Source: Patescibacteria group bacterium
GTDB lineage: Bacteria > Patescibacteriota > Microgenomatia > UBA8517
Assembly (NCBI GenBank): GCA_036381415.1
Contig: DASVCV010000002.1
Coordinates: 20,091 to 84,090 of the forward strand
Direction: 5' to 3'
DNA: 64,000 nucleotides
Below are positions 418 through 33,363 of the stretch, one piece after another; position 1 is the stretch's first letter, and every line of letters starts with the position of its first letter. A program made the translations under genes and the position numbers. The notes beneath the pieces were generated by a model. The model did no database searches. It had not been told where the DNA came from and saw nothing but the letters and a program-made list of their open reading frames with translations.

Positions 418-488
418 ACCCGAAACTCCTATAGTATGTTTACTGTTTTTCACGCGTGTAAACAAATTGGGGAGAGAATTAAATGAAA

Positions 489-2809: not shown

Positions 2810-2828
2810 TTACCAAATTGTAGACTAA

Positions 2829-5662: not shown

Positions 5663-5714
5663 TGTACTTTTAGTCTAGCAAGAAAGAGAAGGAAGTTAAA
5701 GTTTGGATTATGGA

Positions 5715-5945: not shown

Positions 5946-6044
5946 GGTTTATTATAACTTTACAAATTTTGAGGTCAAGGTCAGCAGTAAGAGGGGGATT
6001 TTTTCGATATTGAAAGCTATTGGTGGAGGAGAATATTGTGTTGT

Positions 6045-6257
6045 TCAACGTTTTTTGTGCAGAATAATAGTGTCTACTCCAAAAGTTTTGGACGTATCCA
6101 GCTTGCTCTTAAGATGCACCGATGATAATTCCCTTACCTTTGGACAAGGGGTGACGAATGCCAGGATTTTTTCAAGATCTATTCCTTTTGCTCTTGCTTT
6201 TGATAGCTTTTCCCAGTCGGCACATCCTCCTTCTTTGTTGCAGAGTTCACAGGACAT
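6045..6257 (-). CDS. Small CxxC-containing protein.
   Basis: 70-aa ORF starting MSCELCNKEGGC. Sits in an intergenic gap between the GT-C and GT2 genes on the same strand. Confidence 0.3.
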   Translation of the reverse strand: MSCELCNKEGGCADWEKLSKARAKGIDLEKILAFVTPCPKVRELSSVHLKSKLDTSKTFGVDTIILHKKR

Positions 6258-6289
6258 TGTCAGATATTACCTTAATGAATGGGTGATGT

Positions 6290-18407: not shown

Positions 18408-20276
18408 TTAATAAAGATTGTCTGTATCTATATCTATATTATACTCATCTAGGATATATTCATTGTCTGAAGATTCCAAAAGGCTTTCTGGAATATCAAT
18501 TATGAATCTTGAGATTGGGTTTGAAACTCTTTGTCCAAAGAAAAGTCTGTGAGAAGCGTAGGTGAGGAAAAGTACTTCTTTTGCACGGGTAACTCCAACA
18601 TATGCAAGACGCCTTTCCTCTTCAATTTGATTTGAGTCAAAAAGAGACCTTGAGTGAGGAAAGATTCCATCTTCCATTCCTACTAAAAAGACGACAGGGA
18701 ATTCGAGACCTTTGGCGGCATGAAGAGTCATTAGGGTTACTTTATTTGAATTTGATCCATTGGAAGTGTGGAGTGTCCCATCTGAATTTTGTTCTGCTTG
18801 AACAAGAGCTACATTTTCAAGAAACTCTTGAATATTTGGAAATTGGGTGGCAACAGATCTTAATTCTTTAATGTTTTCTAGCCTTTGAATATTTTCTTCA
18901 GTTTCTTTTTTGTAAGAGGAAAGATAGTCAATTGCAGATACAAGAGAGTCCATTATATCTAGGGTTGTGTAGTTTTCTAAGCTTTCCAGTTTAGATTTAA
19001 ATTCCTCAAACTTTGCTTTTCTTCTGACACCAAGTTTGTCTACCCTTTTTTGAGAAACTTTATCTCTTGGATTAACTAGTAGCCTTAAGAAGGAAAGAAC
19101 GTCTTTAATTTCTTTTCTGTCATAGAATTTGACGCCACCAACAAGGACGTAGGGAATTCCTGCATGAAGAAGGGATTCTTCTAAGACACGAGATTGGGCA
19201 TTTGTTCTATACAAGATTGAAAAATCTCGGAGGGAGTAGCCTTGAGTTTTAAGACTTGCAATTTTGTTTACAATGAAAGCTGCTTCGTCAAAACCGCTTT
19301 TGGCTTGGTAGAGTTTTATTTTTTTGCCAGTATCATTTAAGGTCCAGAGCTTAAGGATTGGGTGAGAGGTGTTTTTGGAAATGATTGCATTTGCTGCATC
19401 AAGAATTGTTTGGGTGGAGCGGTAGTTTTGTTCAAGATTTATTACTTTCAAGTTTGGATAGTCTCTTGAAAGATAATTAATGTTTCTATAGTCTGCACCA
19501 CGCCAAGAATAGATTGATTGGGATGCATCTCCTACACAAGTCAGGTTTCCTGTAGAGCCAACTAAAAGTTTGGTCAGATGATACTGGATTTTGTTTGTGT
19601 CTTGCCACTCATCAACTAGTATGTGAGTTAGTTTTTGCTGCCACTTAGTGCGAACTTGGGGTTTTTCTTCTAGAAGTTTGACAGTTTTATTTAGAAGATC
19701 ATCAAAATCAAGGGCATTGATTTCAGTGAGAAGTTTTTCATAGCTTGCAAAAATTTTAAAAACTTTTTCATCAAAATCTGTTTGTGCATTTTCTCCAAAG
19801 GCAAGTGCATTAATCATTTTGTTTTTTGCACTGGAAATTATATTTGCTACAGCAGCTGGGTTGTATGAATCTTCAGAAAGATTAAAATCAGAAAGCACTT
19901 CTTTGATTGCATCTTTTTGGTCTGCATCATCATATATGACAAAGTCGGGTGAAATTCCAATTTCACGTCCATCGATTCTAAGAAGCTTTACACAGAAAGC
20001 ATGGAAGGTGCCTGCAAAACCAGGCATATCACTTGAAAGCTTTGCAATTCTTTCCTTCATCTCGGTGCTTGCTTTGTTTGTAAAAGTCATGAGAAGGATT
20101 TGAGTTGCGGGTACTCCTTGGGAGATAAACCAGGCAGCACGGTGGGTTAAGACTTTTGTTTTACCTGAACCTGCTCCTGCAAGAACCAGAAGCGGACTTT
20201 TAGGGTATGTGACTGCGTCTATCTGAGCTTTATTTAAATCTGCTAAAATATCCATGATGGTAAAGAAAAGAAACAA
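18408..20276 (-). CDS. ATP-dependent DNA helicase PcrA/UvrD family.
   Basis: LLVLAGAGSGKTKVLTHR (Walker A), DEWQDTN, YRSTQ, TLHAAKGLEFPVVFL, VGVTRAKE. The annotated TTG start (20276) is less likely than the in-frame ATG at 20255 (MDILADLNKAQ). Confidence 0.85.
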   Translation of the reverse strand: MFLFFTIMDILADLNKAQIDAVTYPKSPLLVLAGAGSGKTKVLTHRAAWFISQGVPATQILLMTFTNKASTEMKERIAKLSSDMPGFAGTFHAFCVKLLRIDGREIGISPDFVIYDDADQKDAIKEVLSDFNLSEDSYNPAAVANIISSAKNKMINALAFGENAQTDFDEKVFKIFASYEKLLTEINALDFDDLLNKTVKLLEEKPQVRTKWQQKLTHILVDEWQDTNKIQYHLTKLLVGSTGNLTCVGDASQSIYSWRGADYRNINYLSRDYPNLKVINLEQNYRSTQTILDAANAIISKNTSHPILKLWTLNDTGKKIKLYQAKSGFDEAAFIVNKIASLKTQGYSLRDFSILYRTNAQSRVLEESLLHAGIPYVLVGGVKFYDRKEIKDVLSFLRLLVNPRDKVSQKRVDKLGVRRKAKFEEFKSKLESLENYTTLDIMDSLVSAIDYLSSYKKETEENIQRLENIKELRSVATQFPNIQEFLENVALVQAEQNSDGTLHTSNGSNSNKVTLMTLHAAKGLEFPVVFLVGMEDGIFPHSRSLFDSNQIEEERRLAYVGVTRAKEVLFLTYASHRLFFGQRVSNPISRFIIDIPESLLESSDNEYILDEYNIDIDTDNLY

Positions 20277-21450
20277 GGCTAACTATGAGCCCTCCAACGA
20301 TTTTAGCATGAATGAGGAAGGGAATTCAGATGAAAAGTTGGAATATTCTTCAAATAAGATGTTTGGAATAAAAGATAAAAACTTGGCTAAAAGGAAAGTG
20401 TTTTTGTCTAGAGCTAGAAGAAGATTGTTTAAACATGTTTGGGTTGCAAGAGTGTTTTTAATTATTATTGGCATTTGCTTGCTGGCTATTTTAGGATTTT
20501 TTGGAGTTAATGGACTTAAAGGTACTACCTTTGGCCAATATGTGGGAGTTGGTAAGAATTTTATTTTTCCTCCTAGCGGATTAGTTCCTGAAATTGATGG
20601 GAGGATAAATATTTTACTAATGGGCAAAAGCGGGGAAGGTCAGGACTCACCTGATCTTACTGATACTATGATTCTTGTTTCTATTTCCCAGTCAGACCAT
20701 AAGATAAGTTTAATTTCTATTCCCCGTGATATTTGGATACCTGATTTGCAGGCAAAAATAAACAGCAGCTATTACTGGGGAAAACAAAAATCACAAGGAT
20801 CAGCTCTTGCTGGTATTGTTCTTGCTAAATCAACGGTTGAGGAAATAGTGGGAGTGCCAATACAGTATGGTGTTGTTATTAATTTCTCAGGATTTCAAAA
20901 AGTGATTGATGAGATAGGCGGAGTAGATGTAATGGTTGATAGAGGATTTACTGATACGCAATACCCTTTGCCTGGGCATGAGGCAGATAATTGCAATGGA
21001 GACCCTACCCTGGCTTGCAGATATCAGACGGTTACTTTTAAAGCAGGGCTTAATCATATGGATGGGGCAACTGCTTTAAAGTTTGTTAGGTCAAGACATG
21101 CTCCTGGAGATGAAGGAAGTGATTTGGCAAGAGCACAAAGACAGCAAAAGGTAATTAAGGCAATTATGGAGAAAACACTTAGCCCAGCTACTTTTCTTTC
21201 ACCTTCAAAAATAACTTCATTAGTTGCAATTTTAAATAGTTCTGTAGAAACTGACATGGCTGCTGCTAAGGCTGCAGTAGTTGGACGGTATGTTGTTGAT
21301 GCAAGAAACAATATAGTAACTCATGCAGTTCCAGAAGAGCTTTTGGCTGAAGGTCCTAAATCATATTTATATGGATATCAGTTTGTGTTTTTGCCAAAAA
21401 AGGGAGATTGGTCAGATCTACAAAAATGGGTGAAACAAAATCTTCCTTAA
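20254..21450 (+). CDS. LytR-CpsA-Psr (LCP) family cell-wall polymer phosphotransferase.
   Basis: TM anchor, then INILLMGKSGEGQDSPDLTDTMILVSIS...ISLISIPRDIWIP, the LCP core. The start is ambiguous: the ATG at 20254 overlaps the divergent helicase start, and a later Met (about 20359, MFGIKDK) is also plausible. Confidence 0.8.
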   Translation: MMVKKRNKANYEPSNDFSMNEEGNSDEKLEYSSNKMFGIKDKNLAKRKVFLSRARRRLFKHVWVARVFLIIIGICLLAILGFFGVNGLKGTTFGQYVGVGKNFIFPPSGLVPEIDGRINILLMGKSGEGQDSPDLTDTMILVSISQSDHKISLISIPRDIWIPDLQAKINSSYYWGKQKSQGSALAGIVLAKSTVEEIVGVPIQYGVVINFSGFQKVIDEIGGVDVMVDRGFTDTQYPLPGHEADNCNGDPTLACRYQTVTFKAGLNHMDGATALKFVRSRHAPGDEGSDLARAQRQQKVIKAIMEKTLSPATFLSPSKITSLVAILNSSVETDMAAAKAAVVGRYVVDARNNIVTHAVPEELLAEGPKSYLYGYQFVFLPKKGDWSDLQKWVKQNLP

Positions 21451-21452
21451 AT

Positions 21453-22577
21453 TTAGAAAGCCCATTGGCCTTTGACAAAAAGAACGGAGAAATAAAGTAG
21501 AAGACAGGAAAAGATTAATACCAAAGGTATAAACACTATTTTTCTTTTTGAAATTAAAGCAAGAAATATAAACAAGGGAGGGATTGAAAGAAGGTATCTT
21601 GGAGTGCTTAAAAGAAAACTTGTTGAGGTAATAAAAAGGATAGAAAGAATATAATAGACCCAGTCTCTTACTTTTAATTTTTTAATTATGAAAGGAATAA
21701 GAGCAAAACATAGAATGGCAAGTCCCCCTTCAAAAAGACCAAGCATGAGTGAATCATGAGTCAGAGGTATTTTAAGAAATCCTAGACTGTTTTTTATACT
21801 AACCCATGGAAAATCAAGATGTTTGTACCAATGAGTTTCTAGAACTTCTTTAAAAGCAAAGATTTTACCAAACAATAACCAATTAACAGCAAGGTAAGTA
21901 GAAATAGAAATAATGAATGGAATTGTTATCAGAACTGAGAGAAGAATTTTTTTCTTTAAATTAATTTTTTCTAGTAGTAAAGAAACAAAAAGAGTGGGTA
22001 GTGTTATTAAGCCCATTGTTCTTGTTAAAAAGGTCAGTGCTCCCGAAAGAGAGGACTCATACCAATTTTTGTTTTGAGAAAAGAAGAAGCAGGATACTAA
22101 AAGGAAAAAGAATAATGATTCTGTATATCCAATTGAAAAAAAGTATGAAGTCGGAAAAATATTAAGAAGCACAAGAGATTTTAAGGCAGTTTGTTCATCG
22201 TAGTCTTTTTTTACAAGAAGGTAGAATACTAAACTTCCTAGAATGAAGAAGAAATTGGATACTAATAAAGCTGAAGTAAATACGTTTTTAATTAGCAAAT
22301 TAGCAAAGGTTACAATTGCAGGATATAGAGGTGGGAAAACTATGAAGTTTGCTTCATCTCCACTTGTTCCATACCAATGTTGGGTTATATATAAATAGTG
22401 AGGAGTGTCCCATCTGTTCCAGGTAGAGTCCAGAAGGATGGGTTTATGTGTTTGATAGCCAACTATTAAAAGGGGAAGAATAAGAATAACAATTCTTCCT
22501 AATCCTATTAGAAGAGCAATGGAGATAAGTTTATGTTTTTCTGACTGTAGTTTAAGCCTTTGCATTAAATGTCTCAT
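21453..22577 (-). CDS. Polytopic membrane protein, probable GT-C-type glycosyltransferase (DUF2029/GT87-like).
   Basis: 11+ TM helices with a conserved acidic/aromatic first loop (WNRWDTPHYLYI). The fold assignment is inferred. Confidence 0.45.
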   Translation of the reverse strand: MRHLMQRLKLQSEKHKLISIALLIGLGRIVILILPLLIVGYQTHKPILLDSTWNRWDTPHYLYITQHWYGTSGDEANFIVFPPLYPAIVTFANLLIKNVFTSALLVSNFFFILGSLVFYLLVKKDYDEQTALKSLVLLNIFPTSYFFSIGYTESLFFFLLVSCFFFSQNKNWYESSLSGALTFLTRTMGLITLPTLFVSLLLEKINLKKKILLSVLITIPFIISISTYLAVNWLLFGKIFAFKEVLETHWYKHLDFPWVSIKNSLGFLKIPLTHDSLMLGLFEGGLAILCFALIPFIIKKLKVRDWVYYILSILFITSTSFLLSTPRYLLSIPPLFIFLALISKRKIVFIPLVLIFSCLLLYFSVLFVKGQWAF

Positions 22578-25151
22578 GCTTTTATACTAAATTCTATGCT
22601 GGGGAAGAAATTTAAACAACTTATTATTCCCAAGAATCTCATTTTATCAGTTTTATTTGTACTTGGAGTAAGGCTTGCCTTTTCACTTCTTCCTAGTTTT
22701 CAGATAGATATGGGGACTTGGCTTGCATGGGCAGGAAGGCTTCGTGATTTAGGGTTTGATAAATTTTACTCTGACACTGTTTGGACTCAATATACTCCTG
22801 GATATTTGTATTGGCTTTGGGTTATGGGAAAGACAGGTATTATTTCAGAAGTTGCAATTAAACTACCAGTAATACTAGCTGATATTGGAGTGGGAGTAAT
22901 TATTTGGAATCTAGTCAGAAAGGTTGGCAAGAATACTGCACTTGCTGCATTTTTTGCATATACGCTTAATCCTGTTGTGATATTTAACGGATCAGTTTGG
23001 GGACAAATTGATGGGATATTTACTTTGTTTTTATTTTTGGCAGTTTATTTGATTAATGAGAAGAAAAGTGTTGTTTTGGGATGGAGTATGTGGGCAATTG
23101 CATTTTTAATAAAGCCGCAGGCTTTTGCTATTTTGCCTTTTCTAGTTCTAATAACTTTAAAGAAATATACTATTAAACAAATTCTAAAAGCAGGGATAGT
23201 TACCCTTCTTCTAATATTGGCACTTTCTATTCCATTTTTCCCAACCAATCCAATCTTTGGGTTACCAGATCTAATAAATAAAATGAGTCTTTACTATCCT
23301 TATACTTCTGTTTTTGCTTTTAATGTTTGGACTTTGGTTGGAATGTGGAAGGCAGACAGCACTACTTTTTTGGGAATACAGTATTTTTATATTGGAATTG
23401 GGATGTATGCTCTTTCACTGTTGTTTCTTTTTTGGAAATTTAGAAATAAATTGGATGAGCAAAAGATAGTTTATTTAGTTGTTGCACTTTCATGGATTGC
23501 TTTCTTTTTGTTTCCAACAAGAGTTCATGAAAGATATCTTTTCCCAGCATATGCATTTTTAATTACAGGATCAGCTCTTTCTAAATCAAAAGCATTATCT
23601 ATTTTTTATGTAGTACTTTCTTTTTTAAACTTTTTAAATTTATACCATCCATATGCCTACTATGCTCAGAATTATTTGGTTTCCAAATGGTTGCTTGATT
23701 TTACTGGGAGTGCTTCAGTTTCAATTGGAATTGGAACTTTCTTAATCTTTTTGGCAATTTCATTTAGCGAGAGATTTAAATTCTTGGAAAAAATAAATAT
23801 TTTCTCAAAGAAAAATAGACGTACAATAAAAAATGATTCTAAAGCGGGTAGATTAGGGAATATTTTTATGGGAGGTAAGGATTATGTATTGGGAATGAAA
23901 AATTTGGAAGTTAAGAAAGTAAATTTGCCTCATATTAAATTAACTAAAAAACAAATAAATATCCTTTTAGGAGTAGTAATTGCATTTTCTTTTGTAACAC
24001 GAGTATTTATGTTAGCTAATCCACCTCAGGAATATTTTGATGAGGTATATCATGCATTTACTGCAAGGCAAATGCTGCATGGAAATAAAATGGCTTGGGA
24101 GTGGTGGAACACACCCCCTGTTGGGTTTGCATATGAGTGGACACATCCACCTTTAGCTAAAGAAGGAATGGTTTTGGGAATGTTGGTATTTGGAGAAAAT
24201 CCATTTGGATGGAGAATACCTGGAGCACTTTTGGGGGTGGGAAGTGTAATACTTATCTACTTAATTGCCAGAAAACTTTTTGAGGATGATTTGGCAGGAG
24301 TACTTGCAGCAGGAGTATTTAGCTTAGATGGATTACCCCTTGTACTATCTAGGATTGGGATGAATGACAGCTACTTTTTATTTTTTGCGCTGACTTCAAT
24401 TTATTTTTACTTAGATAATAAAAATAGACTATTTAAAAATAGTAATAACTTTTTGGCTGCATTAACATTTGGGTTGTCCCTTGCTTCTAAATGGAGTGCT
24501 TTATGGGCCATTCCTATCTATGTTGCAATACATTTTCTTTTAAAGAGAAAATTAACTATCTCATATCTGTGGTTTTTGGTCTTACCTCCTTTAGTTTATG
24601 TTGCAACCTATATTCCCATGTTTATCAGCGGACATAATTTCTCAATATTTATTGAGATGCAAAAACAGATGTGGTGGTATCACACTAATTTGCGTGCCAC
24701 TCACCCGTACACATCTCCCTGGTGGAGCTGGCCATTTTTAGTCAGGCCAATCTGGCTTTATACAAGCGGAAGATTAGGAGACACTATTTCAAACATCTAT
24801 GCGATGGGGAATCCAGTTGTATTTTGGTTTGGATTAGGGGCAGTTGTTGTAACGGCAGTGAAAGGGTTAATGGAAAGGAGCAAGAAATTAATATTGGTTG
24901 CATTTGCATATTTAATTTTCTTTGTACCTTGGGCACTATCTCCAAGAATAATGTTTTTGTACCACTATCTTCCTTCAATTCCATTTTTGGCAATTGCAAC
25001 TGGGTATGTTTTAAGAAAGCATAAAGAACTCATTGCTCCTGTATTTATTGTAGGACTTGTTACTTTTATTTACTTTTACCCACATTTAATTGCAATGAAA
25101 GTTCCAGTTGTATTTGATTCTTCATACTATTGGTTTGATAGCTGGAGATAA
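22569..25151 (+). CDS. Fused 860-aa membrane glycosyltransferase. N-terminal GT-C/DUF2029-like half, C-terminal PMT (GT39) family protein O-mannosyltransferase-like half.
   Basis: The C-terminal half carries PPQEYFDEVYHAFTARQ (PMT DE motif) and a PMT_2-like distal region. 20+ TM helices overall. Overlaps the divergent GT-C gene start. Confidence 0.65.
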   Translation: MSHAFILNSMLGKKFKQLIIPKNLILSVLFVLGVRLAFSLLPSFQIDMGTWLAWAGRLRDLGFDKFYSDTVWTQYTPGYLYWLWVMGKTGIISEVAIKLPVILADIGVGVIIWNLVRKVGKNTALAAFFAYTLNPVVIFNGSVWGQIDGIFTLFLFLAVYLINEKKSVVLGWSMWAIAFLIKPQAFAILPFLVLITLKKYTIKQILKAGIVTLLLILALSIPFFPTNPIFGLPDLINKMSLYYPYTSVFAFNVWTLVGMWKADSTTFLGIQYFYIGIGMYALSLLFLFWKFRNKLDEQKIVYLVVALSWIAFFLFPTRVHERYLFPAYAFLITGSALSKSKALSIFYVVLSFLNFLNLYHPYAYYAQNYLVSKWLLDFTGSASVSIGIGTFLIFLAISFSERFKFLEKINIFSKKNRRTIKNDSKAGRLGNIFMGGKDYVLGMKNLEVKKVNLPHIKLTKKQINILLGVVIAFSFVTRVFMLANPPQEYFDEVYHAFTARQMLHGNKMAWEWWNTPPVGFAYEWTHPPLAKEGMVLGMLVFGENPFGWRIPGALLGVGSVILIYLIARKLFEDDLAGVLAAGVFSLDGLPLVLSRIGMNDSYFLFFALTSIYFYLDNKNRLFKNSNNFLAALTFGLSLASKWSALWAIPIYVAIHFLLKRKLTISYLWFLVLPPLVYVATYIPMFISGHNFSIFIEMQKQMWWYHTNLRATHPYTSPWWSWPFLVRPIWLYTSGRLGDTISNIYAMGNPVVFWFGLGAVVVTAVKGLMERSKKLILVAFAYLIFFVPWALSPRIMFLYHYLPSIPFLAIATGYVLRKHKELIAPVFIVGLVTFIYFYPHLIAMKVPVVFDSSYYWFDSWR

Positions 25152-25290
25152 TTACTTCTAGAGAGTAAAAGGGAATTAGGGTGGTGGCTTCAACCATTTT
25201 AGTTCTTTTAGTTTGGTAAATACTAAATTTATTGTTCTAGAGGTACAACACAAAATAATTAAGCAAGTCTAAGACTAGTTAATAGAAGTG

Positions 25291-26019
25291 TTAGAGAGCT
25301 AGTATTACTGCTCCTATTAGAAGGACTATACCTCCTGCAATTGCAAGCCAGGTTGGAGTTGATACTCCAGCTTGTGGAAGAGCAGGTGCAGGGGTTGCCA
25401 CTGTTGGTTTTGGTGTTGCAACTACAGTGGGAGTTGGGGTGGCAAGTGCGACAGGCGTAGGTGTTGGAGTTGCGCATACGCAAGTTGTGCTTGTAGTACA
25501 TGATGGGTTTCTACAAACACCTGTAGTTCCAGAAGTTATATAGCAGGTCATTCCAGACTGACAGTTTGCATCAGATCCGCAAGTTCCACCGCATGCATTG
25601 GGTACCCCTGGCGTTGCAGTAGGAGTTGGAGTTGCAGTCGGGGTTGGTGTTGCAGTTCCTGAGGGAGTAGGAGTTGGAGTTGCAGTTGCAGCAGTAATGG
25701 CAAAACTTGTTGTGCAGATACTTGAAGTGGCTGCACATGCACCATTTACGATGTTTTGTCCTGAAGGACAACAATAAACTGTTGAACCATTAGCTGGACT
25801 TATACAAGAAGTAGAGCCTGCAATGCTGGTTGCATTACAATTTAATCCTGCAGCACATTGTTCTGCTGCTCCAGGTTTACTGGTGGGTGCAGTTGGTGCA
25901 ACTGATTCTTGTCTTAACTGATATAGCCTTAAAGCAGTAAATACTGCAATTCCTGCAAGAATTACAGTTGCTCCTAGTATTAATATTGTTACTAAATTTT
26001 TCTTTACAAATGCTTGCAT
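25291..26019 (-). CDS. Cys-rich, Pro/Thr-linker-rich surface protein B2. N-terminal signal-anchor, C-terminal LPQAG sorting signal plus hydrophobic tail.
   Basis: N-terminus MQAFVKKNLVTILILGATVILAGIAVF. 22 Cys, (TPTP)n linkers, an 8-Cys module NACGGTCGSDANCQSGMTCYITSGTTGVCRNPSCTTSTTCVCA. C-terminus LPQAGVSTPTWLAIAGGIVLLIGAVILAL. Confidence 0.6.
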   Translation of the reverse strand: MQAFVKKNLVTILILGATVILAGIAVFTALRLYQLRQESVAPTAPTSKPGAAEQCAAGLNCNATSIAGSTSCISPANGSTVYCCPSGQNIVNGACAATSSICTTSFAITAATATPTPTPSGTATPTPTATPTPTATPGVPNACGGTCGSDANCQSGMTCYITSGTTGVCRNPSCTTSTTCVCATPTPTPVALATPTPTVVATPKPTVATPAPALPQAGVSTPTWLAIAGGIVLLIGAVILAL

Positions 26020-26023
26020 ATTA

Positions 26024-27520
26024 TTAGAACCATTGGTTTAGAACTTGATGATGTAATTGTCCTGAAACTGTGAAATTGGTGATATTTGTTGGTATTGTGT
26101 ATTCTTCATAGAAATCAGCACTGCTTGGACGCTTAGTGGCTACTTCAGGTTGCAAGGTTCCATTAATAGTGAATCTTGCTTTATCAAATACTCCAGAGGT
26201 TGTTGTACCTGTAAGTGTAAAGCGTATTTTATCTCCTGGTTTTAAAGCCGAAAGCTGAGTTGTGGTTAGAGGATTCCAGTTAGTGTCATAAATTTGTATT
26301 CCAGTGCATGTTGCGGTTGGAGTTGGACCACAGGCTTGTTGTACTTCAGCAGCGGTTGGGTTTGCTCCTGATGAGTTAAGAACATATGAGTTTCCTTGGT
26401 CACGAGCAACGCAGTTATTTGTTGTCCATCCAGTAGGAAGTGTGTCTGGGACGCAATATGTGGTGTTGTTTGTCCCTGTTCCTACTGTACAACTTGGTCC
26501 AACTATGTATCTACAAACTGAGCCTGTTTGACAAAGGCCAAGAGATGCACTGCATGGATTTCCACAGGCATTTAGGCTACTGCAGTCGCAGTTTCTTCCA
26601 GGAATGGTTTTTCCAATACAGCTTGCATTTTGACAGATCCCTGCAACGCATGTAACAGTTCCACCATTTCCTGCAGCAGCGCAGTCACTTGTTTGAGTAC
26701 ATGCCTGTCCACAGGTTGGTTTAGGAGTGGGAGTAGGTGCTGATCCACCTGCACAAGTTGAAGGATTCCAAACACATGCTCCTTGGGGATTTCTTTGACA
26801 TTCCGAGCCTCTTTCTCCTACACCTGCTTCAACACAAGAGCAGCTTCCGCAAGCTCCCCATCCTGGCTGGATTGTTGGAGCTGGGGCTGTTGAACTTGTT
26901 GGAGTAGGTGAAGGTGGGACATAACCGCTTGTGCTACATTGTCCAGATGTAGCTGCGGGACAACCAGACTGGCATCCACAAGAGCTGTTTTGGGATACAC
27001 AATTTACAGTTCCGTCAGAATTGTAGAAACAATTATCGCATTTGTTTGCATTGAATTTATCTCCACATCCAGCAAATCCTCCAGGAGTGTTGTTTGATGC
27101 TCCGCCACAGGCGTCAAGTCTAACACAAGGTCCGTAAGTGTTGTTTGCTTGGCATACTACTCCTGTTCCAGCTCCATTACATTCAATACAGGATTGTTCA
27201 CCTGGGTTAACACATGATGCTCCTGGTGCTGCGCCTCCACCAGCTGCCTTCTGTTTAAAAATTTGCTGTTGTTGAACTAGGAGTAGTCCTGCTCCAACTC
27301 CTACTACTAAGAGAACTAGTCCAAGAATGGTTGGAATGAGTGCCCTTCTTCTGGGTGACGGTGGGGCAAAGTCTGTTTGTGGTGGAGTTGTAATGTTAGT
27401 GTCAGCTGGTCCTCCTGCACCTGTTTCAGGAGGAGTTTCTGTTGGAAAAGTTGGATTTGTCCCTGGGTCACTTGGCGCGATTGTGTTGGTGGAATTTTGA
27501 GGGCTGGTATTATCTTGCAT
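26024..27520 (-). CDS. Large Cys-rich surface protein A2. N-terminal Pro/Thr-rich segment plus signal-anchor, about 45 Cys, and a conserved C-terminal beta-rich domain.
   Basis: PRRRALIPTILGLVLLVVGVGAGLLLV anchor. Many CxC / CxxC disulfide-type spacings. The C-terminal IYDTNWNPLTTTQLSALKPGDKIRFTLTGTTTSGVFDKARFTINGT domain is shared with the 28342..30033 ORF. Confidence 0.6.
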   Translation of the reverse strand: MQDNTSPQNSTNTIAPSDPGTNPTFPTETPPETGAGGPADTNITTPPQTDFAPPSPRRRALIPTILGLVLLVVGVGAGLLLVQQQQIFKQKAAGGGAAPGASCVNPGEQSCIECNGAGTGVVCQANNTYGPCVRLDACGGASNNTPGGFAGCGDKFNANKCDNCFYNSDGTVNCVSQNSSCGCQSGCPAATSGQCSTSGYVPPSPTPTSSTAPAPTIQPGWGACGSCSCVEAGVGERGSECQRNPQGACVWNPSTCAGGSAPTPTPKPTCGQACTQTSDCAAAGNGGTVTCVAGICQNASCIGKTIPGRNCDCSSLNACGNPCSASLGLCQTGSVCRYIVGPSCTVGTGTNNTTYCVPDTLPTGWTTNNCVARDQGNSYVLNSSGANPTAAEVQQACGPTPTATCTGIQIYDTNWNPLTTTQLSALKPGDKIRFTLTGTTTSGVFDKARFTINGTLQPEVATKRPSSADFYEEYTIPTNITNFTVSGQLHHQVLNQWF

Positions 27521-27597
27521 TTAATTTTTTATGAATATGAAGCTAGTCATTTCTAGCCCTATACCCATCATAGAAAGAGCTAGAGCTGGTGTCAAGT
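27521..27597 (-). pseudogene. Remnant copy of the 3' end (sorting-signal-encoding tail) of the 30045..31382 gene. It marks the junction of the tandem duplication.
   Basis: Translates to ...LTPALALSMMGIGLEMTSFIFIKN*, cf. ...DLTPTLALSMMGIGLVVTSFILWKKLEI* at the true gene end. About 70 nt of DNA are near-identical to 30069..30130. Confidence 0.55.
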
Positions 27598-27615
27598 AAA
27601 TTGTTTGTAAATTCT

Positions 27616-28332
27616 TTAGAGAGCAAGTATTACTGCTCCTATTAGAAGGACTATACCTCCTGCAATTGCAAGCCAGGTTGGAGTTGATACTCCAGCTTGG
27701 GGAAGAGCAGGTGCAGGGGTTGCAACTGTTGGTGTAGGAGTTGCAACTGCAATAGGTGTAGGAGTTGGGGTTGGTGTTGCACATACGCAAGTTGTGCTTG
27801 TAGTACATGATGGGTTTCTACATACTCCTGTAGTTCCAGAAGTTATATAACAGGTCATTCCAGATTGACAGTTTGCATCAGATCCGCAAGTTCCATTACA
27901 TGCATTTGGTGCTCCAGGTGTTGGAGTAGGAGTGGGTGTAGGAGTTGGAGTTGGTGTAGGTGTAGCTGTTGCACAAACACAGTTTGAGTTTGATGCACAG
28001 GATGGATTTACACAGATGTTGTTTCCAGATACTGTTTGGCAAGTTAGACCAGTTGGACAATTTGATTGACCACCTGGAGTAGTACAAGCTTCATAGCATT
28101 GAGGTACTGGTGTAGGAGTAGGAGTTGGTGTTTCAGCAGTAAGTGTAAAGGACAGTGCTTGGCAAGCAGGGTTTACTTGAGCACCTGGATTACTAGTAGG
28201 AGCAGCAGGAGAAACAGACTCTTGTCTTAACTGATATAGCCTTAAAGCAGTAAATACTGCAATTCCAGCAAGTATTACAGTTGCTCCTAGTATTAATATT
28301 GTTACTAAATTTTTCTTTACAAATGCTTGCAT
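27616..28332 (-). CDS. Cys-rich, Pro/Thr-linker-rich surface protein B1 (paralog of B2). Two copies of the 8-Cys module and an LPQAG sorting signal.
   Basis: N-terminal 40 aa and C-terminal about 95 aa are identical or near-identical to B2. The first domain is replaced by a second 8-Cys module (CYEACTTPGGQSNCPTGLTCQTVSGNNICVNPSCASNSNCVCA). Confidence 0.6.
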   Translation of the reverse strand: MQAFVKKNLVTILILGATVILAGIAVFTALRLYQLRQESVSPAAPTSNPGAQVNPACQALSFTLTAETPTPTPTPVPQCYEACTTPGGQSNCPTGLTCQTVSGNNICVNPSCASNSNCVCATATPTPTPTPTPTPTPTPGAPNACNGTCGSDANCQSGMTCYITSGTTGVCRNPSCTTSTTCVCATPTPTPTPIAVATPTPTVATPAPALPQAGVSTPTWLAIAGGIVLLIGAVILAL

Positions 28333-28341
28333 ATTATTTTT

Positions 28342-30033
28342 TTAATTCCATGTATTTAACGCTGCATGGTGAATTTGTGCTGTTACTGTGAAACTTGTTA
28401 CACCTACTGGAATTGTGTACTCATCATAGAACTCTTGAGTTGCTGCTGGTTTGGTTGTTGTTACTTCTGGTCTTAAGGTTCCATTAATAGTAAATCTTGC
28501 TTTATCAAATACTCCAGATGTGGTTGTTCCAGTTACAGTAAATCTAACCTTGTCTCCTGCTTTAAGAGCTGATAATTGAGTGGTTGTAAGCAGATTCCAG
28601 TTTGTGTCATATGCTTTTACAGCCTGACATTGTGCAGTGGAAGGAGCGGTTGATCCAGGAGGGTTGGTTGGTGTTGTTCCTCCACCAGTAGTTGGAGTAG
28701 TTGGTGCTTCAATGGTGCCAGCTGGTGCGGCGCAGGACTGGCGGTCGGCATCGTATGAACAAGATATGGTTCCATTGTTGCAGAAGCAGTCGTAATTGCT
28801 TGGTTGGTTGTAATGGTCACCGCAACCTGCAAATCCTCCACTGCCGACTGTGCGGCCATCATATACTCTACATGTGTTGCCAGTAGTTGGGGGAGTGCTC
28901 CCATTACAAGTGTGTGTTGTTTCGTTACAATCACCGCTTAAACAACTTGTGTCGTATATACAAGTTGCTCCGTCTGGCCTGTTGCCGATCTCACCGCAGC
29001 GGTCTGTACGGATACAATCCCATTGACCAAGAGCGTTACAGTATGCTTGTTGAGTTGGACCTGCGCCTCCTGCTGGTTCTCCGTTTGCACCACTACAGTC
29101 TCCGCAAGCTTTTCTGTCTCCTGTGGTACATACTCTTCCTGTAGCATTTGAATAACCTCCGCAGGCTATTAATGTACCAGCGTTGCCGTAGCAGACTTTC
29201 TGTCCGGATTTAACTGTTCCTGCAATACAGGTAATACAATGAAGTGGACTTGAGCAGTTTGCATCTGAGGTACAAGTATCGCCTTCCCCACCTGTTGTTG
29301 TGCCTCCTGGAGTTGTACCTCCGCCGCTGGTGGTTGCAGTTGGACAGCTTTCACCTGCTGGACAACATCTACCTAGATAGCTTCCATTAGATTGTTGACA
29401 ACCTGCACCTGGATATACATAAGTCCATCCTGTAGCTGGGCATTGTCCACGATCAGAACCACTTGATCCAGTACACCAAGCACCTGCAGGAGCCGTTGGT
29501 TGAGTTCCTCCACTACTTGGTTGAGAACACATGCCAAGAGTGTTGCTGCATCCAACTGCAGATCCTCCACCACCTGAACAGTTCCAGTTGTAGTTTCCAG
29601 GACATTCTCCTCTATTACCTACTCTACAATCTCCAGTACACCAGCCGCCTGCTCTTTGATTTAGAAGCTGTTGTCTTTGAGTAAGTGCTAATCCTGCTCC
29701 AACTCCTACTACTAAAAGAACTAATCCAAGAATTGTTGGAATGAGTGCCCTTCTTCTTGGTGAAGGAGGGGCAAAGTCTGTTTGTGGCGGGGTTGAAATT
29801 CCAGAATCAGGTGGAACTCCTCCTCCATTGCCTGTATCTTGTGGTGTTTCTGTTGGGAAGGTTGGACTTGTATCTGCTGGTTGAGTGGTAGTTGTGGTTG
29901 TTGTTTCTGTAACTGTTACAGGTGGTACAGATAATGGCTGGTCTGTAAGAGTTGGTGGAGTACTCGTACTTTGATCAGTAGGAAATGTAGGATTAGTAGA
30001 AGTATTTTGTTGATTTAGAGTACTATCTTGCAT
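28342..30033 (-). CDS. Large Cys-rich surface protein A1 (paralog of A2).
   Basis: Same N-terminal anchor (PRRRALIPTILGLVLLVVGVGAGLAL) and C-terminal domain as A2. A different Cys-rich central region of about 50 Cys, and a longer poly-Thr N-terminal segment. Confidence 0.6.
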   Translation of the reverse strand: MQDSTLNQQNTSTNPTFPTDQSTSTPPTLTDQPLSVPPVTVTETTTTTTTQPADTSPTFPTETPQDTGNGGGVPPDSGISTPPQTDFAPPSPRRRALIPTILGLVLLVVGVGAGLALTQRQQLLNQRAGGWCTGDCRVGNRGECPGNYNWNCSGGGGSAVGCSNTLGMCSQPSSGGTQPTAPAGAWCTGSSGSDRGQCPATGWTYVYPGAGCQQSNGSYLGRCCPAGESCPTATTSGGGTTPGGTTTGGEGDTCTSDANCSSPLHCITCIAGTVKSGQKVCYGNAGTLIACGGYSNATGRVCTTGDRKACGDCSGANGEPAGGAGPTQQAYCNALGQWDCIRTDRCGEIGNRPDGATCIYDTSCLSGDCNETTHTCNGSTPPTTGNTCRVYDGRTVGSGGFAGCGDHYNQPSNYDCFCNNGTISCSYDADRQSCAAPAGTIEAPTTPTTGGGTTPTNPPGSTAPSTAQCQAVKAYDTNWNLLTTTQLSALKAGDKVRFTVTGTTTSGVFDKARFTINGTLRPEVTTTKPAATQEFYDEYTIPVGVTSFTVTAQIHHAALNTWN

Positions 30034-30044
30034 CTTTTATTTTT

Positions 30045-31382
30045 TTATATTTCTAACTTTTTCCAAAGTATGAAGCTAGTCACTACTAGCCCTATACCCA
30101 TCATAGAAAGAGCTAGAGTAGGAGTCAAGTCACCAGACACTGGAATGGCACTCCCCGTGGCTGGAAGAGTAATTCTTGTTGTCCCAGATGTTGTTGAAAC
30201 AGGGGTTGGAGTTGGTGTTGGAATGGGAGTGGGTGTTGGAATAGGTGTAGCAGAACCAGATGCAACAAAAGCTGGTCCTTCAGAAGCTTGAACAACAAAT
30301 GTTTTTGTTAAGGTTTGCAGAATTCCTTGGGCGTCTGTCCAGGAAACTGAAAGAGTGTGAGTTCCTGGATCTAGATTTGCAGGTGGATTCCAGGTCCAGG
30401 TTCCATCAGCAGCAGCTGTAACTGTTGCCGTTTGGGGAGTGGACCTGACAGTAATAGTAATTTTTGTATTAGGAGTGGCAGTTCCCATGATTTGAGGTTT
30501 AGCAGTGGAAATTATTTCGCCATCTTTGATACTTGTAACGGTTACAGTTTTTGTTGTTCCTGAGGTTGTAGCAGTATTTCCTAAGTTAAAACCTGCTGAT
30601 GAAGTTGCTGTGTCAGGCAAATTAAGATTTGATTGAGGATTTCCTCCTTCGGTGTTACCAGGATTACTTCTAAAATCATATGTTTGTCCAAGTTTGATAA
30701 CAGGAGTTGGGTTGGCTGATTTAGGATAGATTTGAGCAGTTGAGACTCCACTTACTCCACCTTGAACAAAAATTTGAAGAAGAGTGGAGTCTGGGGAAAT
30801 AGTTGCATAACTTGTGAGATCTGGTTTAAGTGCAGTGCTAATTGGAATTACCCAATTACCGTTAGCTGAAGTTAAGGCAGACATTGGGTTAAATCCAGTT
30901 CCATTTACATAGACCAGAACTTCTGGAGCTGGAAGGCCACCTGCATCTTCAACTGTTCCTGATATCAAGATCTGAGTAGGAAGAGTGGATGTTGTTTGTG
31001 AGGCAGTTTGGGTGTTCCAAGGGATTCCTGAGTTGTCATAATCAGAGCCAGCTGAATTAATTTTAAAATAGTAGGGAGTTGATGGACTTAAGGTAGTTAC
31101 TTGGACCCAATGAATGGTGGTAGCAGTTTGGGAAGCAAGTGTTGTCTGGCTTAAACTGTCTTGACTTACCCCATATTTGACATATCCAACGGTTGGTTTG
31201 TCAGTAATCCAAGAAATTGCAAAAGAAGAGGAAGATTGGTTTGTTATTCTTACATCTTGGGGTGCAACATCAGGAGAAGCACCAAGCTTAAATTGCTTGG
31301 ATGTTGCAACAAGAAAAATACCTGCTCCCATACCAAGTACAAGAACTAGTATTCCTATTAGTGTTGGGATTTTCCCTCTCAT
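30045..31382 (-). CDS. LPXTG-anchored multi-domain surface protein (Fn3-like, CarboxypepD_reg-like and Ig-like domains, PT-rich stalk).
   Basis: N-terminal signal MRGKIPTLIGILVLVLGMGAGIFLV. Fn3-like region SFAISWITDKPTVGYVKYG...YYFKINSAG. Ig-like region DGTWTWNPPANLDPGTHTLSVSWTD. (PTPTPIPTPTPTP) stalk. C-terminal LPATG plus hydrophobic segment plus KKLEI, a canonical sortase signal. Confidence 0.65.
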   Translation of the reverse strand: MRGKIPTLIGILVLVLGMGAGIFLVATSKQFKLGASPDVAPQDVRITNQSSSSFAISWITDKPTVGYVKYGVSQDSLSQTTLASQTATTIHWVQVTTLSPSTPYYFKINSAGSDYDNSGIPWNTQTASQTTSTLPTQILISGTVEDAGGLPAPEVLVYVNGTGFNPMSALTSANGNWVIPISTALKPDLTSYATISPDSTLLQIFVQGGVSGVSTAQIYPKSANPTPVIKLGQTYDFRSNPGNTEGGNPQSNLNLPDTATSSAGFNLGNTATTSGTTKTVTVTSIKDGEIISTAKPQIMGTATPNTKITITVRSTPQTATVTAAADGTWTWNPPANLDPGTHTLSVSWTDAQGILQTLTKTFVVQASEGPAFVASGSATPIPTPTPIPTPTPTPVSTTSGTTRITLPATGSAIPVSGDLTPTLALSMMGIGLVVTSFILWKKLEI

Positions 31383-31717
31383 GGCGTGGTTCCTCCTGGA
31401 GTTGCTGACTGACTGGCAATTGGAGTTGCTGACTCACTTGCAACGGGTGTTGCAACAGGTGTTGGGGTAGGAAGAGTGGATGCAGTAACGGTATTATTTC
31501 CGATCTGGTCATCACTAAGGTACATTCTTTGTTGTAATTTATTTAGAGCAGCTACGTCAAGAGTGGGATTTAAGGGTGCAACAATTTCAGCAGGTACTGG
31601 GGGAGAAGGCTTTATAGTTAGGGTTCTATAAACCTCAAAAGCAATCCAGAAAAAGATTGTGATTAGGGTAATTATTGCAAGAGTTACTCCTGCTGGTGTT
31701 TTTATTCCTCTTTTCAT
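31379..31717 (-). CDS. Membrane-anchored Pro/Thr-rich protein co-transcribed with pilN/pilO. Possible pilus-associated component.
   Basis: 112 aa: N-terminal TM (MKRGIKTPAGVTLAIITLITIFFWIAF), then a PT/ATP-rich low-complexity tail. ATGA start/stop overlaps with both neighbouring genes. Confidence 0.45.
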   Translation of the reverse strand: MKRGIKTPAGVTLAIITLITIFFWIAFEVYRTLTIKPSPPVPAEIVAPLNPTLDVAALNKLQQRMYLSDDQIGNNTVTASTLPTPTPVATPVASESATPIASQSATPGGTTP

Positions 31718-32379
31718 TTTGTTTGGGCTGTTTGAGCTTCCTGGTAAGGGGCTCTTCCTTCTATGGTTAGATATAAATTTTTAACATTATCAATTTCTGT
31801 TGCAGTAAAATTTAGACTGTCAAAGACAAGAGGACGTCTTAAAAGTTCAATATCTGCAAGGAATGTTGAGATGGTGTTGTAGTCGCCTGCTACTGAAATA
31901 GATACTCCAACCCCTGAACTTCCTTGCGGAAGAGTTTTTCTTTGATCAGGGGGACCTGCAAGAACAGGGGAAGTCCCTGCAAGAGTTATTTGTTCACTTC
32001 CTATGTTTTGAGTAACAACATTATCTTTTTTAATTACTCCTTCAATTTGGCGGATGTATTGACCAAGAGATGGAGATGTGGGAACTGCATCAGAAAGAAG
32101 AGCAATATTTGCCTGTTGGGATGCAAGAATACTCTGAGCTTGCTGAAGGTTTAGGATTTTAGCATCCATTTGTTCTATGGTTTTTTGCTTTTCATTAATT
32201 TCTGTTAAGAGGTTAGAGATGGTAAGGGCAGTTGGCTTAATGGCAAAGATTGAAAAAAGGCCAATAGTAACTATGGAAAGTAGAAGCTCAAGAAAGGCTT
32301 TTAAGTCTGGCCTTCTTTTGTAAAGAGCCATTAAGTTAAATAGATACTGTTGTCCTCTAAAGTAGCTTTTAGGTCCCAT
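31714..32379 (-). CDS. pilO: Type IV pilus assembly protein PilO.
   Basis: Basic N-terminus plus one TM and a coiled coil. C-terminal ISVAGDYNTISTFLADIELLRRPLVFDSLNF is similar to the PilO core. Start uncertain: 32379 or 32331, while the ORF track gives 32484. Confidence 0.65.
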   Translation of the reverse strand: MGPKSYFRGQQYLFNLMALYKRRPDLKAFLELLLSIVTIGLFSIFAIKPTALTISNLLTEINEKQKTIEQMDAKILNLQQAQSILASQQANIALLSDAVPTSPSLGQYIRQIEGVIKKDNVVTQNIGSEQITLAGTSPVLAGPPDQRKTLPQGSSGVGVSISVAGDYNTISTFLADIELLRRPLVFDSLNFTATEIDNVKNLYLTIEGRAPYQEAQTAQTK

Positions 32380-32953
32380 TTGGTTTAGGCGTAGCTGCCA
32401 CTCCTTTCTGTGTAGCAAGAACTTGGAAAGTGATATTGCCTGTTGTTTGGTCAATTGTGGTTTGAGTAAGAGATACTTTATCAAACATATTTGGGATTGC
32501 TTTTAAGTTTGCAATAAATGTACCTGCTCCAACTTCTGAGGTGGAAGTTGCTCTAATTTCAACTGCAGATGCATCTACTGAAAGAAATGTTATTTGGACA
32601 GTATCAGGAAGAGCAGTTGTTAGGGTTTGAAGAAGAGGAATGTATTTGCTTTTGTCATATGCAACAGAAGAGAAAATGGCTAACTCTTTTTGAGCTTCTC
32701 TAAAGTTCTTTTCAACTTGGGCATATGAGGTAATAACTGCCTTTTTTTGATTTATAGCTTCTGTTAGGTCGCTTACTTTGGAGTCAAGCCAGAATCTAGA
32801 GAGAAATGCTCCCATTACGACCATTTCAGTTGCAATGACAATGAGCCTAAATGAAGAAATAAGCCATCTAAAAATTCTTCCTAGAGTGGATGATTCGAAC
32901 TCTTCTTGTGGAAGAAGATTGATCCTTGGTTCTTTAGTGTTGCGGGCAGCCAT
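32369..32953 (-). CDS. pilN: Type IV pilus assembly protein PilN.
   Basis: The hallmark N-terminal INLLP motif (PRINLLPQEE), a single TM, a coiled coil and a C-terminal ALPDTVQITFLSVDASAVEIRATS region. Confidence 0.75.
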   Translation of the reverse strand: MAARNTKEPRINLLPQEEFESSTLGRIFRWLISSFRLIVIATEMVVMGAFLSRFWLDSKVSDLTEAINQKKAVITSYAQVEKNFREAQKELAIFSSVAYDKSKYIPLLQTLTTALPDTVQITFLSVDASAVEIRATSTSEVGAGTFIANLKAIPNMFDKVSLTQTTIDQTTGNITFQVLATQKGVAATPKPNGT

Positions 32954-33019
32954 ACAATTAGAGCCAATGACTATTCAATGGCTACTTCAATATAACATAA
33001 CCGTGAGGTTCACAAAAGA

Positions 33020-33313
33020 TTATTTTTTGGAAGCTTTTTTAGAAGATTTTTTGGGAGCAGCTTTTTTAACTGGCTTAACTGGTTTTGCTAATTTAGAAAG
33101 AGCTGATTTAATTCTTGCTGCTTTATTCTTATGGATTACTTTCTTTTTTGCAGCACGATCTGCAAGAGAAGATGCTTTTTTAATACTTACCTGGCTTTTA
33201 GTTTTCTTTGCTAGTCGTATTGCAGCATCCAAATCCTTTATAATAATTGTGTTAACAGATGCTTTCTGGGCTGACCCTCTTAAAGCTCTTTTGGCTGTTT
33301 TAGTTACAGGCAT
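33020..33313 (-). CDS. rpsT: 30S ribosomal protein S20 with a Lys-rich C-terminal extension.
   Basis: MPVTKTAKRALRGSAQKA...IHKNKAARIKSALSKL matches the S20 signature. Start taken at Met-14 of the listed ORF. Confidence 0.8.
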   Translation of the reverse strand: MPVTKTAKRALRGSAQKASVNTIIIKDLDAAIRLAKKTKSQVSIKKASSLADRAAKKKVIHKNKAARIKSALSKLAKPVKPVKKAAPKKSSKKASKK

Positions 33314-33363
33314 GCCTGAAGTATAATTCAAAATGCTCGTAATTTCAATCAAACACTAAAAAG

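Follow-up and report, generated by a model that had tools for sequence, protein, structure and literature searches.

We analysed a 64-kb segment of a low-GC bacterial chromosome (about 35% guanine plus cytosine) from Patescibacteria, the whole of which is referred to below as the window. It encodes an 860-residue protein (22569..25151, + strand) that combines two GT-C glycosyltransferase modules, the C-terminal one being of the protein O-mannosyltransferase (PMT, GT39) type and the N-terminal one belonging to the fold class of ALG6, ALG3 and PimE. On balance we think it probable that this protein serves a general system which O-glycosylates secreted and surface proteins at the outer face of the membrane, and in which the PMT module initiates the glycan, the ALG/PimE-class module extends it and the neighbouring genes encode plausible substrates. 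The original prediction made from this DNA had proposed PMT-type O-mannosylation of Pro/Thr-rich secreted proteins and had taken the co-localisation of their genes with that of the enzyme as evidence of an enzyme-substrate pair. The identification of the enzyme is upheld by our analysis, whereas the co-localisation argument is downgraded and the specific pairing is not established.

The Patescibacteria, or candidate phyla radiation, represent a very large share of bacterial diversity, almost none of which is in culture; their cells are attached to those of other organisms, and very little is known of their surface chemistry. PMT-type O-glycosylation in this group, if true, extends a modification of the eukaryotic and actinobacterial type to this radiation. 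The nearest relatives of the 860-residue protein are annotated as Candidatus Woesebacteria. Eighty-five related loci (L001-L085) were compared, together with two extra Daviesbacteria loci (L086 and L087) found by a search with a standalone Daviesbacteria PMT. Residue conservation was assessed in 42 homologs with 47-81% identity, and an AlphaFold2 model of the protein was built on 42 homologs (pLDDT 86.9).

The 860-residue fusion protein

The following features were annotated in the protein and its gene.

22569..25151, + strand: fusion of two GT-C glycosyltransferases, 860 residues
22569..23798, + strand: N-terminal module (residues 1-410), GT-C of the ALG6/ALG3/PIG-M/PimE structural class
22707..22709, + strand: Asp47 in the first outer loop of the N-terminal module, invariant among homologs
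23799..23906, + strand: disordered Lys/Arg-rich linker (residues 411-446, pLDDT below 50), predicted to be cytoplasmic by the positive-inside rule
23907..25151, + strand: C-terminal module (residues 447-860), compact, MIR-less and of the PMT/GT39 type, with 7+4 transmembrane (TM) helices predicted
24033..24053, + strand: YFDEVYH (residues 489-495), the Asp-Glu catalytic motif (D491-E492) in the first outer loop, aligned with FDEVH of fungal Pmt1/Pmt4
24945..24956, + strand: R793-I-M-F796, the Arg-x2-Phe/Tyr motif in the fifth outer loop, aligned with RQMF of ScPmt1 and invariant in the 42 homologs

Every open reading frame named in the original prediction was found at its given coordinates, including this one with its YFDEVYH motif and PMT-type C-terminus. 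The gene call at NCBI is nine codons shorter (851 residues), with its start 27 nt downstream. The C-terminal half matched the Pfam families PMT (PF02366) at 5e-17 (62.6 bits against a cutoff of 22.7), PMT_4TMC (PF16192) at 2e-18 (66.9 bits, cutoff 32.4) and PMT_2 at 3e-13, above the gathering threshold, and the PMT and PMT_4TMC domains exceeded their thresholds in 41 and 42 of the 42 homologs respectively. When the PDB was searched with a 42-sequence profile of this half, fungal PMTs were the sole matches (3e-15 to 2e-8) and no ArnT was returned at E<=10. PMTs were also the best matches in the fold comparison, ahead of ArnT and the oligosaccharyltransferases, and the module was found to be nearer to PMTs than to ArnT or STT3/PglB/AglB in both sequence and fold. 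The affinity with ArnT which the original prediction had named beforehand as evidence against itself was thus not seen. ArnT (GT83, the lipid A 4-amino-4-deoxy-L-arabinose transferase) has the GT-C fold and the PMT_2/PF02366 superfamily in common with the module, and was rejected as its identity on the profile search and the fold ranking; to our knowledge ArnT contains no PMT_4TMC domain.

D491 is invariant in the 42 homologs and E492 nearly so, and of the 150 closest cluster representatives 141 retain the Asp-Glu motif; the counterpart of D491 in MtPMT, D74, is essential (PMC12331936). The HPPL motif (H526-P-P) is likewise invariant. The R649-F652 pair of ScPmt1, with which R793 and F796 align, has been equated with R441/Y444 of MtPMT, both of which are essential in that enzyme, and in ScPmt1 and ScPmt2 the pockets for the donor phosphate and the acceptor peptide are lined by the Arg-x2-Phe motif (PMC12331936). 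These motif residues of the C-terminal half match residues found to be essential by mutagenesis in MtPMT and ScoPMT (PMC12331936, PMC12757957).

The helix pattern of the modelled C-terminal half is consistent with a 7+4 arrangement, with short strands at 729-745 following a helix at 691-707. No match to a MIR domain was found in this half and the model leaves no room for one; since bacterial PMTs also lack MIR (PMC12757957), this absence excludes only the eukaryotic subfamily. The compact family is a large one, with 944 cluster representatives (at 50% identity) matching the C-terminal half at E<=1e-30, and public records already label these proteins as GT39 or as ‘phospholipid carrier-dependent glycosyltransferase’.

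The N-terminal half has the GT-C fold of the ALG/PIG/PimE class together with the conserved Asp in its first outer loop. It gave no Pfam match at E<=0.05, the GT87 model PF09594 included, and weak matches were found among its homologs, to GT87 in seven of 42 at E<=0.05 (best 1.3e-7), to ALG3 in six and to PIG-U in one. The homolog at the distant locus L081 reached 29.8 bits on the GT87 model, for which the cutoff is 25. Structurally, the window module is nearer to ALG6, ALG3 and PIG-M than to PimE. It therefore shares the fold class of these proteins and is not a demonstrable member of GT87. Its enzymatic structural relatives (ALG6, ALG3, GPI-MT-I and PimE) each add one hexose from a polyprenyl-phosphate donor onto an existing glycan, while PIG-U, also among the relatives, is a subunit of the glycosylphosphatidylinositol (GPI) transamidase.

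The gene encodes a true fusion, and in the model the two polytopic modules are joined by the disordered segment 411-446. The basic N-terminus and the basic linker would place the catalytic loops of both modules outside the membrane. More than 120 protein clusters retain the fused form, as do 80 species-level genomes of Woesebacteria/Microgenomates, and the N-terminal module is carried by 47 of the 150 closest cluster representatives of the C-terminal module. A standalone PMT form of about 400 residues was found in at least 120 clusters in the search with the standalone Daviesbacteria PMT. In Daviesbacteria the halves are separate and usually adjacent genes. At L079 the stop codon (TAA) of the N-type gene is separated by 9 nt from the ATG of the C-type gene, the two products having 35% and 49% identity to the respective window halves; the two genes are also adjacent at L087 and are not adjacent at L086. 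This pattern of fused and split forms argues that the two enzymes act in one pathway.

By homology, we infer that the protein would be a bifunctional glycosyltransferase which depends on a polyprenyl-phosphate sugar and works at the outer surface of the membrane. The C-terminal module would place the first hexose, assumed to be mannose, on Ser/Thr residues of unfolded Pro/Thr/Ser-rich segments of exported proteins. The N-terminal module would probably then extend the O-linked sugar, a step that in mycobacteria falls to a separate GT87 enzyme, PimE, and variable GT-C genes in the neighbourhood may add further residues.

This scheme resembles the O-mannosylation of Thr/Pro-rich regions by GT39 enzymes which is well established in Actinobacteria (PMC12757957, PMC11727336, PMC12331936), the group to which the overwhelming majority of about 4,000 bacterial GT39 entries in CAZy belong (PMC12757957). 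In mycobacteria the GT39 enzyme Pmt initiates and the GT87 enzyme PimE elongates from the same lipid donor (PMC12757957). The actinobacterial enzymes (M. tuberculosis Rv1002c, S. coelicolor SCO3154 and C. glutamicum Cg1014) have in common with the window protein a MIR-less PMT domain with PMT_4TMC as well as the Asp-Glu and Arg-x2-aromatic motifs, and their system also involves Thr/Pro-rich acceptors and a second GT-C which extends the glycan from the same lipid-linked donor (PMC12757957, PMC12331936). The differences are that the two GT-C activities are fused in the window protein and encoded by separate genes in Actinobacteria, that the PMT module here is about 410 residues long as compared with 530 positions in the actinobacterial Pmt model, and that the organism is a Patescibacterium.

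Eukaryotic PMT1/2/4 (6P25, 9E61, 9I5K) provide the best sequence and fold matches, with the FDEV, HPPL and RxMF-LHHYLP motifs in common. Unlike these enzymes, the window module lacks the MIR beta-trefoil, is about half the size and has no evident dimer partner, and it would use a bacterial polyprenyl phosphate as donor in place of dolichyl phosphate. The fusion can be regarded as a natural ‘Rosetta stone’ tying PMT to an elongating enzyme of the ALG/PimE class, and the module of about 410 residues could give structural and engineering studies a minimal model to work with.

Pro/Thr-rich surface proteins

The genes downstream of the fusion lie on the opposite strand and are listed below together with the sortase gene of the window.

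25291..26019, - strand: B2, Cys-rich surface protein of 242 residues with an N-terminal TM helix, (TP)n linkers and a C-terminal LPQAG followed by a hydrophobic tail
26024..27520, - strand: A2, 498 residues, with a Pro/Thr-rich N-terminal tail, one TM helix, a hypervariable Cys-rich region and a conserved C-terminal domain of about 95 residues
27616..28332, - strand: B1, 238 residues, paralog of B2
28342..30033, - strand: A1, 563 residues, paralog of A2, with a TTTTTTT run before the TM helix
30045..31382, - strand: fn3/Big_13 surface protein of 445 residues (the ‘LPATG protein’) containing a PTPTPIPTPTPTP linker and, at the C-terminus, a signal of the sorting type
31379..31717, - strand: bitopic protein of 112 residues with a Pro/Thr-rich C-terminal tail
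31714..32953, - strand: PilO- and PilN-like genes, with which the same-strand string begins
61028..61714, + strand: sortase gene (PF04203, 2e-24)

All five convergent genes that had been predicted to contain Pro/Thr runs were confirmed, and the 112-residue protein was found to be a sixth. Within the window, such runs are nearly confined to the contiguous B2, A2, B1, A1, fn3 and 112-residue genes. In the orthologs of the 85 loci the runs occur in 91% of the B proteins, 91% of the fn3/Big_13 proteins and 74% of the A proteins, as compared with 0-10% for the orthologs of other neighbours (LCP, PilN, PilO, S20, HrcA, FemAB, UvrD and MurJ). Thr/Pro linkers are a documented acceptor type of bacterial GT39 enzymes (PMC12757957, PMC11727336, PMC6151902), in agreement with the original prediction. 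The linkers of B and of the fn3 protein are predicted to be extracytoplasmic, which makes the adjacent B, fn3/Big_13 and A proteins plausible, although not necessarily dedicated, substrates. A rise in GC content up to 0.45 across 26-30 kb coincides with these Pro/Thr/Gly/Cys-rich genes and is accounted for by them; another explanation is unnecessary.

Two features of the original prediction are corrected. The TTTTTTT run of A1 is real, but it lies at about residues 55-61, N-terminal to RRR and to the single TM helix (97-115), and is predicted to be cytoplasmic by the positive-inside rule, which would put it beyond the reach of a PMT-type active site. The A proteins in general have an N-terminal tail rich in Pro, Thr, Gln and Asn, then an Arg cluster, then the TM helix. 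The Pro/Thr run of the LPATG protein is also real, but the LPATG pentapeptide is not conserved in its orthologs, in which the conserved element corresponds to IPVSG-DLTPT of the window protein, located a short distance downstream of LPATG.

The conserved signal of the fn3 proteins consists of [IV]Px[TSA]G, (D/S)LTPT, a TM helix and Lys/Arg. A TM-proximal [LIVFM]Px[TSA]G is present in 49 of 67 orthologs (IPVSG in the window), and 64 of the 67 have Lys or Arg within the last eight residues. The B proteins end in LPx[AS]G-xxxPT-hydrophobic-LAL, with a purely hydrophobic end and no basic tail in 73 of 74 orthologs; [LIVFM]Px[TSA]G was found in 66 of the 74 (LPQAG in the window). The sorting-signal model TIGR01167 gave 14 bits, below its cutoff of 15.9. 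The B-type and fn3-type signals may represent a lineage-specific sortase signal, and the sortase encoded at 61028..61714 could process Px[TSA]G signals of this kind. Within 58785-61714, the sortase gene overlaps the stop codon of a gene for a 748-residue bitopic protein which has a weak Baseplate_J match and no LPXTG.

The A/B pair is duplicated in tandem (A1-B1 and A2-B2, 25291-30033) with a spacing of about 2.3 kb. The ends of the B1 and B2 genes are 91-92% identical in DNA whereas their Cys-rich middles have diverged, and the A proteins are hypervariable outside the TM anchor and the C-terminal domain of about 95 residues. A search with the A family returned 17 homologs, all annotated as ‘hypothetical’, and the pair is also duplicated at L030, L073 and L083. 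Such duplication and hypervariability is the pattern of fast-evolving surface adhesins. The order on the - strand (PilN, PilO, the small bitopic protein with its Pro/Thr tail, fn3/Big_13, A and B) is conserved across Woesebacteria and hints that the surface proteins are connected with type IV pilus machinery; no PilM gene adjoins the string.

Gene order and alternative readings

Two genes upstream of the fusion have to be considered together with the surface proteins.

20254..21450, + strand: LCP (LytR-CpsA-Psr) glycopolymer transferase (TIGR00350, 3e-31)
21453..22577, - strand: GT-C of 374 residues, PMT_2/PIG-V-like and divergent from the fusion gene (PMT_2, 28 bits; its orthologs match the PIG-V family, Mannosyl_trans2)

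In 68 of 72 loci an LCP gene is found on the same strand as the fusion and no more than 4.5 kb upstream of it. Between them is a slot which holds zero to three polytopic proteins, varying by species among L001-L085; the occupants include the PIG-V/PMT_2-like protein of the window (21453-22577), YfhO, DUF2298, TMEM260-like and PIG-M/GT87-like proteins and others. The slot looks like a glycan-diversification hot-spot, and a homolog of the 374-residue protein, which may be one of the enzymes adding further residues, also adjoins the PMT genes at L079 and L081.

On the other side of the fusion, 65 of 69 informative loci have a convergent B, A or fn3 gene within 1.5 kb, even where enzyme identity is as low as 37%. 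The same loci are collinear for about 15 genes, including rpsT (S20), murJ, hrcA and two helicases, the order being UvrD, two FemAB, UvrD, LCP, GT-C, PMT, B, A, fn3, the small protein, PilO, PilN, S20, MurJ, HrcA, GrpE and DnaK. As a block with housekeeping genes is equally conserved, the adjacency of the enzyme and the Pro/Thr-rich genes is not specific and was rejected as evidence of their coupling. The association that survives across lineages is that of PMT with other GT-C enzymes. At the distant and non-syntenic locus L081, the fusion directly follows a gene for a different Cys-rich protein of 1346 residues (313-4353), which contains TPTPTPTPTP...TTTTT...PTPTPTPTPTPT; it has 89 Cys, repeat modules of the CGNG/CGDG type, a weak DUF4215 match, N-terminal TP repeats and a C-terminal TM region. 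This Pro/Thr-repeat neighbour is a single case and is suggestive.

Many public metagenome-assembled genome records with the Woesebacteria-type gene order (L007, L010, L014, L015, L020 and others) are titled ‘uncultured Gammaproteobacteria bacterium’, and single records with the same order are titled ‘Methanosarcinales archaeon’ and ‘Alphaproteobacteria bacterium’. These titles are probably wrong.

Several observations weigh against the protein O-glycosylation reading or against the neighbouring gene products as its substrates. The fusion gene and B2 are convergent, with a spacer of 139 bp, and hence are not co-transcribed; the proximity of the Pro/Thr-rich genes is explained by the lineage-wide synteny of the block; and in the Daviesbacteria loci L079, L086 and L087 the PMT gene keeps its GT-C neighbours and has no Pro/Thr-rich or Pil neighbours. 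Together with the predicted cytoplasmic position of the A1 run, these points mean that co-localisation, which had been offered as evidence of an enzyme-substrate pair, supports such a pairing only weakly. No small GT2 of the Ppm1/Dpm1 type is present within the window, its sole GT2 being a 497-residue Glyco_trans_2_3 protein. The conserved upstream neighbours, namely LCP and GT-Cs of the teichoic-acid type (YfhO), fit the synthesis of a wall polymer equally well. The C-terminal half scored 70.1 bits on the actinobacterial Pmt equivalog model NF058602, for which the cutoff is 800. By this NCBI criterion it is related to Rv1002c without being its ortholog; it is a deep and compact (about 410 residues) GT39-type branch, and its acceptor could differ from those of known PMTs. 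The family assignment, the fusion of an initiator-like with an elongator-like module and the variable GT-C island give the O-glycosylation reading better support than adjacency does.

A different situation was observed at L081 with respect to the donor pathway, as a 243-residue PF00535 GT2, of the size of polyprenyl-phosphate-sugar synthases, is encoded two genes from the fusion. This cluster also has an NDP-sugar epimerase/dehydratase and two more GT-Cs beside the fusion.

The most serious alternative, possible and in our judgement rather unlikely, is that the fused GT-C, the variable GT-Cs and LCP together make and attach a glycolipid or a glycopolymer of the wall. The product would be a polymer of the mannan, lipomannan-like or teichoic-acid-like kind, joined to peptidoglycan or decorated on the outer side of the membrane, and the Pro/Thr-rich neighbours would be unrelated to the enzyme. 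The frequent upstream LCP gene is what such a function would predict, but its adjacency is as weak an argument as that of the Pro/Thr-rich genes, being absent at L079, L081, L086 and L087. LCP enzymes can moreover glycosylate protein (PMC6381275), so that the presence of the gene leaves protein targets possible. In the A. oris LcpA-GspA system an LCP enzyme transfers a glycan to a sortase-anchored protein (PMC6381275), and there, as here, an LCP gene and sortase-type surface proteins occur in one locus; LCP is however a different family from the PMT fusion, and it is tied to the window surface proteins by block synteny alone. The slot proteins of the YfhO, DUF2298 and PMT_2 types (in other bacteria, some of these act on acceptors other than protein), the FemAB and MurJ genes flanking the locus, and a weak MptA_B_family match in one homolog also speak for a glycopolymer, as does the use of lipid-linked acceptors by all the enzymatic relatives of the N-terminal half (ALG6, ALG3, GPI-MT-I and PimE). 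Against this, the C-terminal half is specifically PMT-like, with PMT_4TMC and the Arg-x2-Phe motif, and the characterised GT39 enzymes glycosylate proteins (PMC12757957, PMC6151902).

It is quite unlikely that the enzyme is dedicated to modifying the A, B and fn3 proteins encoded beside it, their adjacency marking a co-evolving enzyme-substrate module. The closeness of convergent B, A or fn3 genes in 65 of the 69 loci and the conservation of their linkers are what this explanation would require, but the whole block of about 15 genes with rpsT, murJ, hrcA and uvrD is conserved to the same degree, the convergent orientation allows no shared transcript, and three Daviesbacteria loci have a PMT gene without such neighbours. 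The non-syntenic L081, where a Cys-rich Pro/Thr-repeat protein is again found beside the fusion, also favours it and is one observation, and known bacterial PMTs modify many secreted proteins (PMC12757957). A precedent, which also bears on the general O-glycosylation reading, is known from the Firmicute C. bescii, where the GT39 gene Cbes_1864 is situated close to celA, the gene for a protein with alternating Thr-Pro linkers, and where deletion of Cbes_1864 abolishes exoprotein glycosylation (PMC6151902). In this case too a non-actinobacterial GT39 gene is found near genes for secreted proteins with Thr-Pro linkers (PMC6151902). Cbes_1864 however lies within the substrate locus (the glucan degradation locus) and in the same orientation, whereas the window genes are convergent and their adjacency is inseparable from synteny; it also differs from the window protein in possessing an additional N-terminal loop domain and in lacking a fused second GT-C. 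The concept of a GT39 gene beside genes for Thr-Pro-linker substrates is thus already documented outside Actinobacteria and is not new. What appears to be new is the Patescibacteria lineage, the minimal PMT module of about 410 residues, its fusion to a GT-C of the elongating class and the adjacent variable GT-C island.

Coincidence of two common features, with the linkers as ordinary unmodified spacers and the GT-C fusion having an unrelated or lost function, is very improbable: Pro/Thr linkers are frequent in bacterial surface proteins without known glycosylation, and promoter and terminator scans no better than chance reveal no regulatory link, but the invariant or nearly invariant catalytic residues of both modules in the 42 homologs and the 944 cluster representatives matching the C-terminal half point to strong purifying selection, consistent with an active enzyme.

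The scans covered 20000..33500, where promoter and terminator counts were at or below the shuffled expectation, and the convergent spacer of 139 bp yielded no terminator. The best sigma-70-like site of this region, in a scan that overall was not above chance, is TTGACA-17-TATGAT (11/12) at 27567-27595 on the - strand, within the B1/A2 spacer; it could drive the second A/B pair.

An elaboration of the protein O-glycosylation reading, unlikely in its full form, is that an ultrasmall and probably episymbiotic bacterium uses the locus as a module for diversifying its glycosylated surface. One polypeptide would carry the initiating and elongating steps of O-glycosylation, GT-Cs would be swapped at the hot-spot (TMEM260-like, PIG-M/GT87, DUF2298, YfhO and PIG-V-like), and the glycans would decorate the fast-evolving, Cys-rich, sortase-type A/B adhesins encoded next to the type IV pilus genes for PilN/PilO. 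If this is true, glycan and protein would vary together and shape host recognition, and Patescibacteria would have their first described system of protein glycosylation. Our literature search returned no paper on O-mannosylation in Patescibacteria, in line with the original prediction that it was undescribed for this kind of organism, and co-mentions of Patescibacteria and O-glycosylation were incidental.

Other genes of the window

The gene content around the locus is ordinary and includes MetRS, UvrD-type helicases, two FemAB proteins, signal peptidase, MurJ and HrcA-GrpE-DnaK-DnaJ, as well as NusA, IF-2, PNPase, RNase J, FtsK and AlaRS. Three GT-C proteins in addition to the fusion had been predicted. 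Pfam matches support two of them, the 374-residue protein at 21453..22577 and one of the following, while the other was recognised on inspection only.

4334..5662: GT-C with a Pfam match (PMT_2/EpsG)
2829..4349: polytopic GT-C candidate with YGDEMIY in the first loop, identified by inspection, without a Pfam match

Both are part of a second polyprenyl-dependent glycan cluster (489-7783), which also comprises a UbiA-family prenyltransferase, a GT4 of the MraY/WecA type and the 497-residue GT2. The combination of UbiA and GT-C in this cluster is reminiscent of the actinobacterial decaprenyl-phosphate-sugar pathways.

A 357-residue LAGLIDADG/HTH_38 open reading frame (9149-10222) lies on the strand of the MetRS gene (7783-9207), whose start it overlaps, and may be a free-standing or degenerate homing endonuclease. 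Among the related loci, a UvrD-type helicase with an intein was observed at L001.

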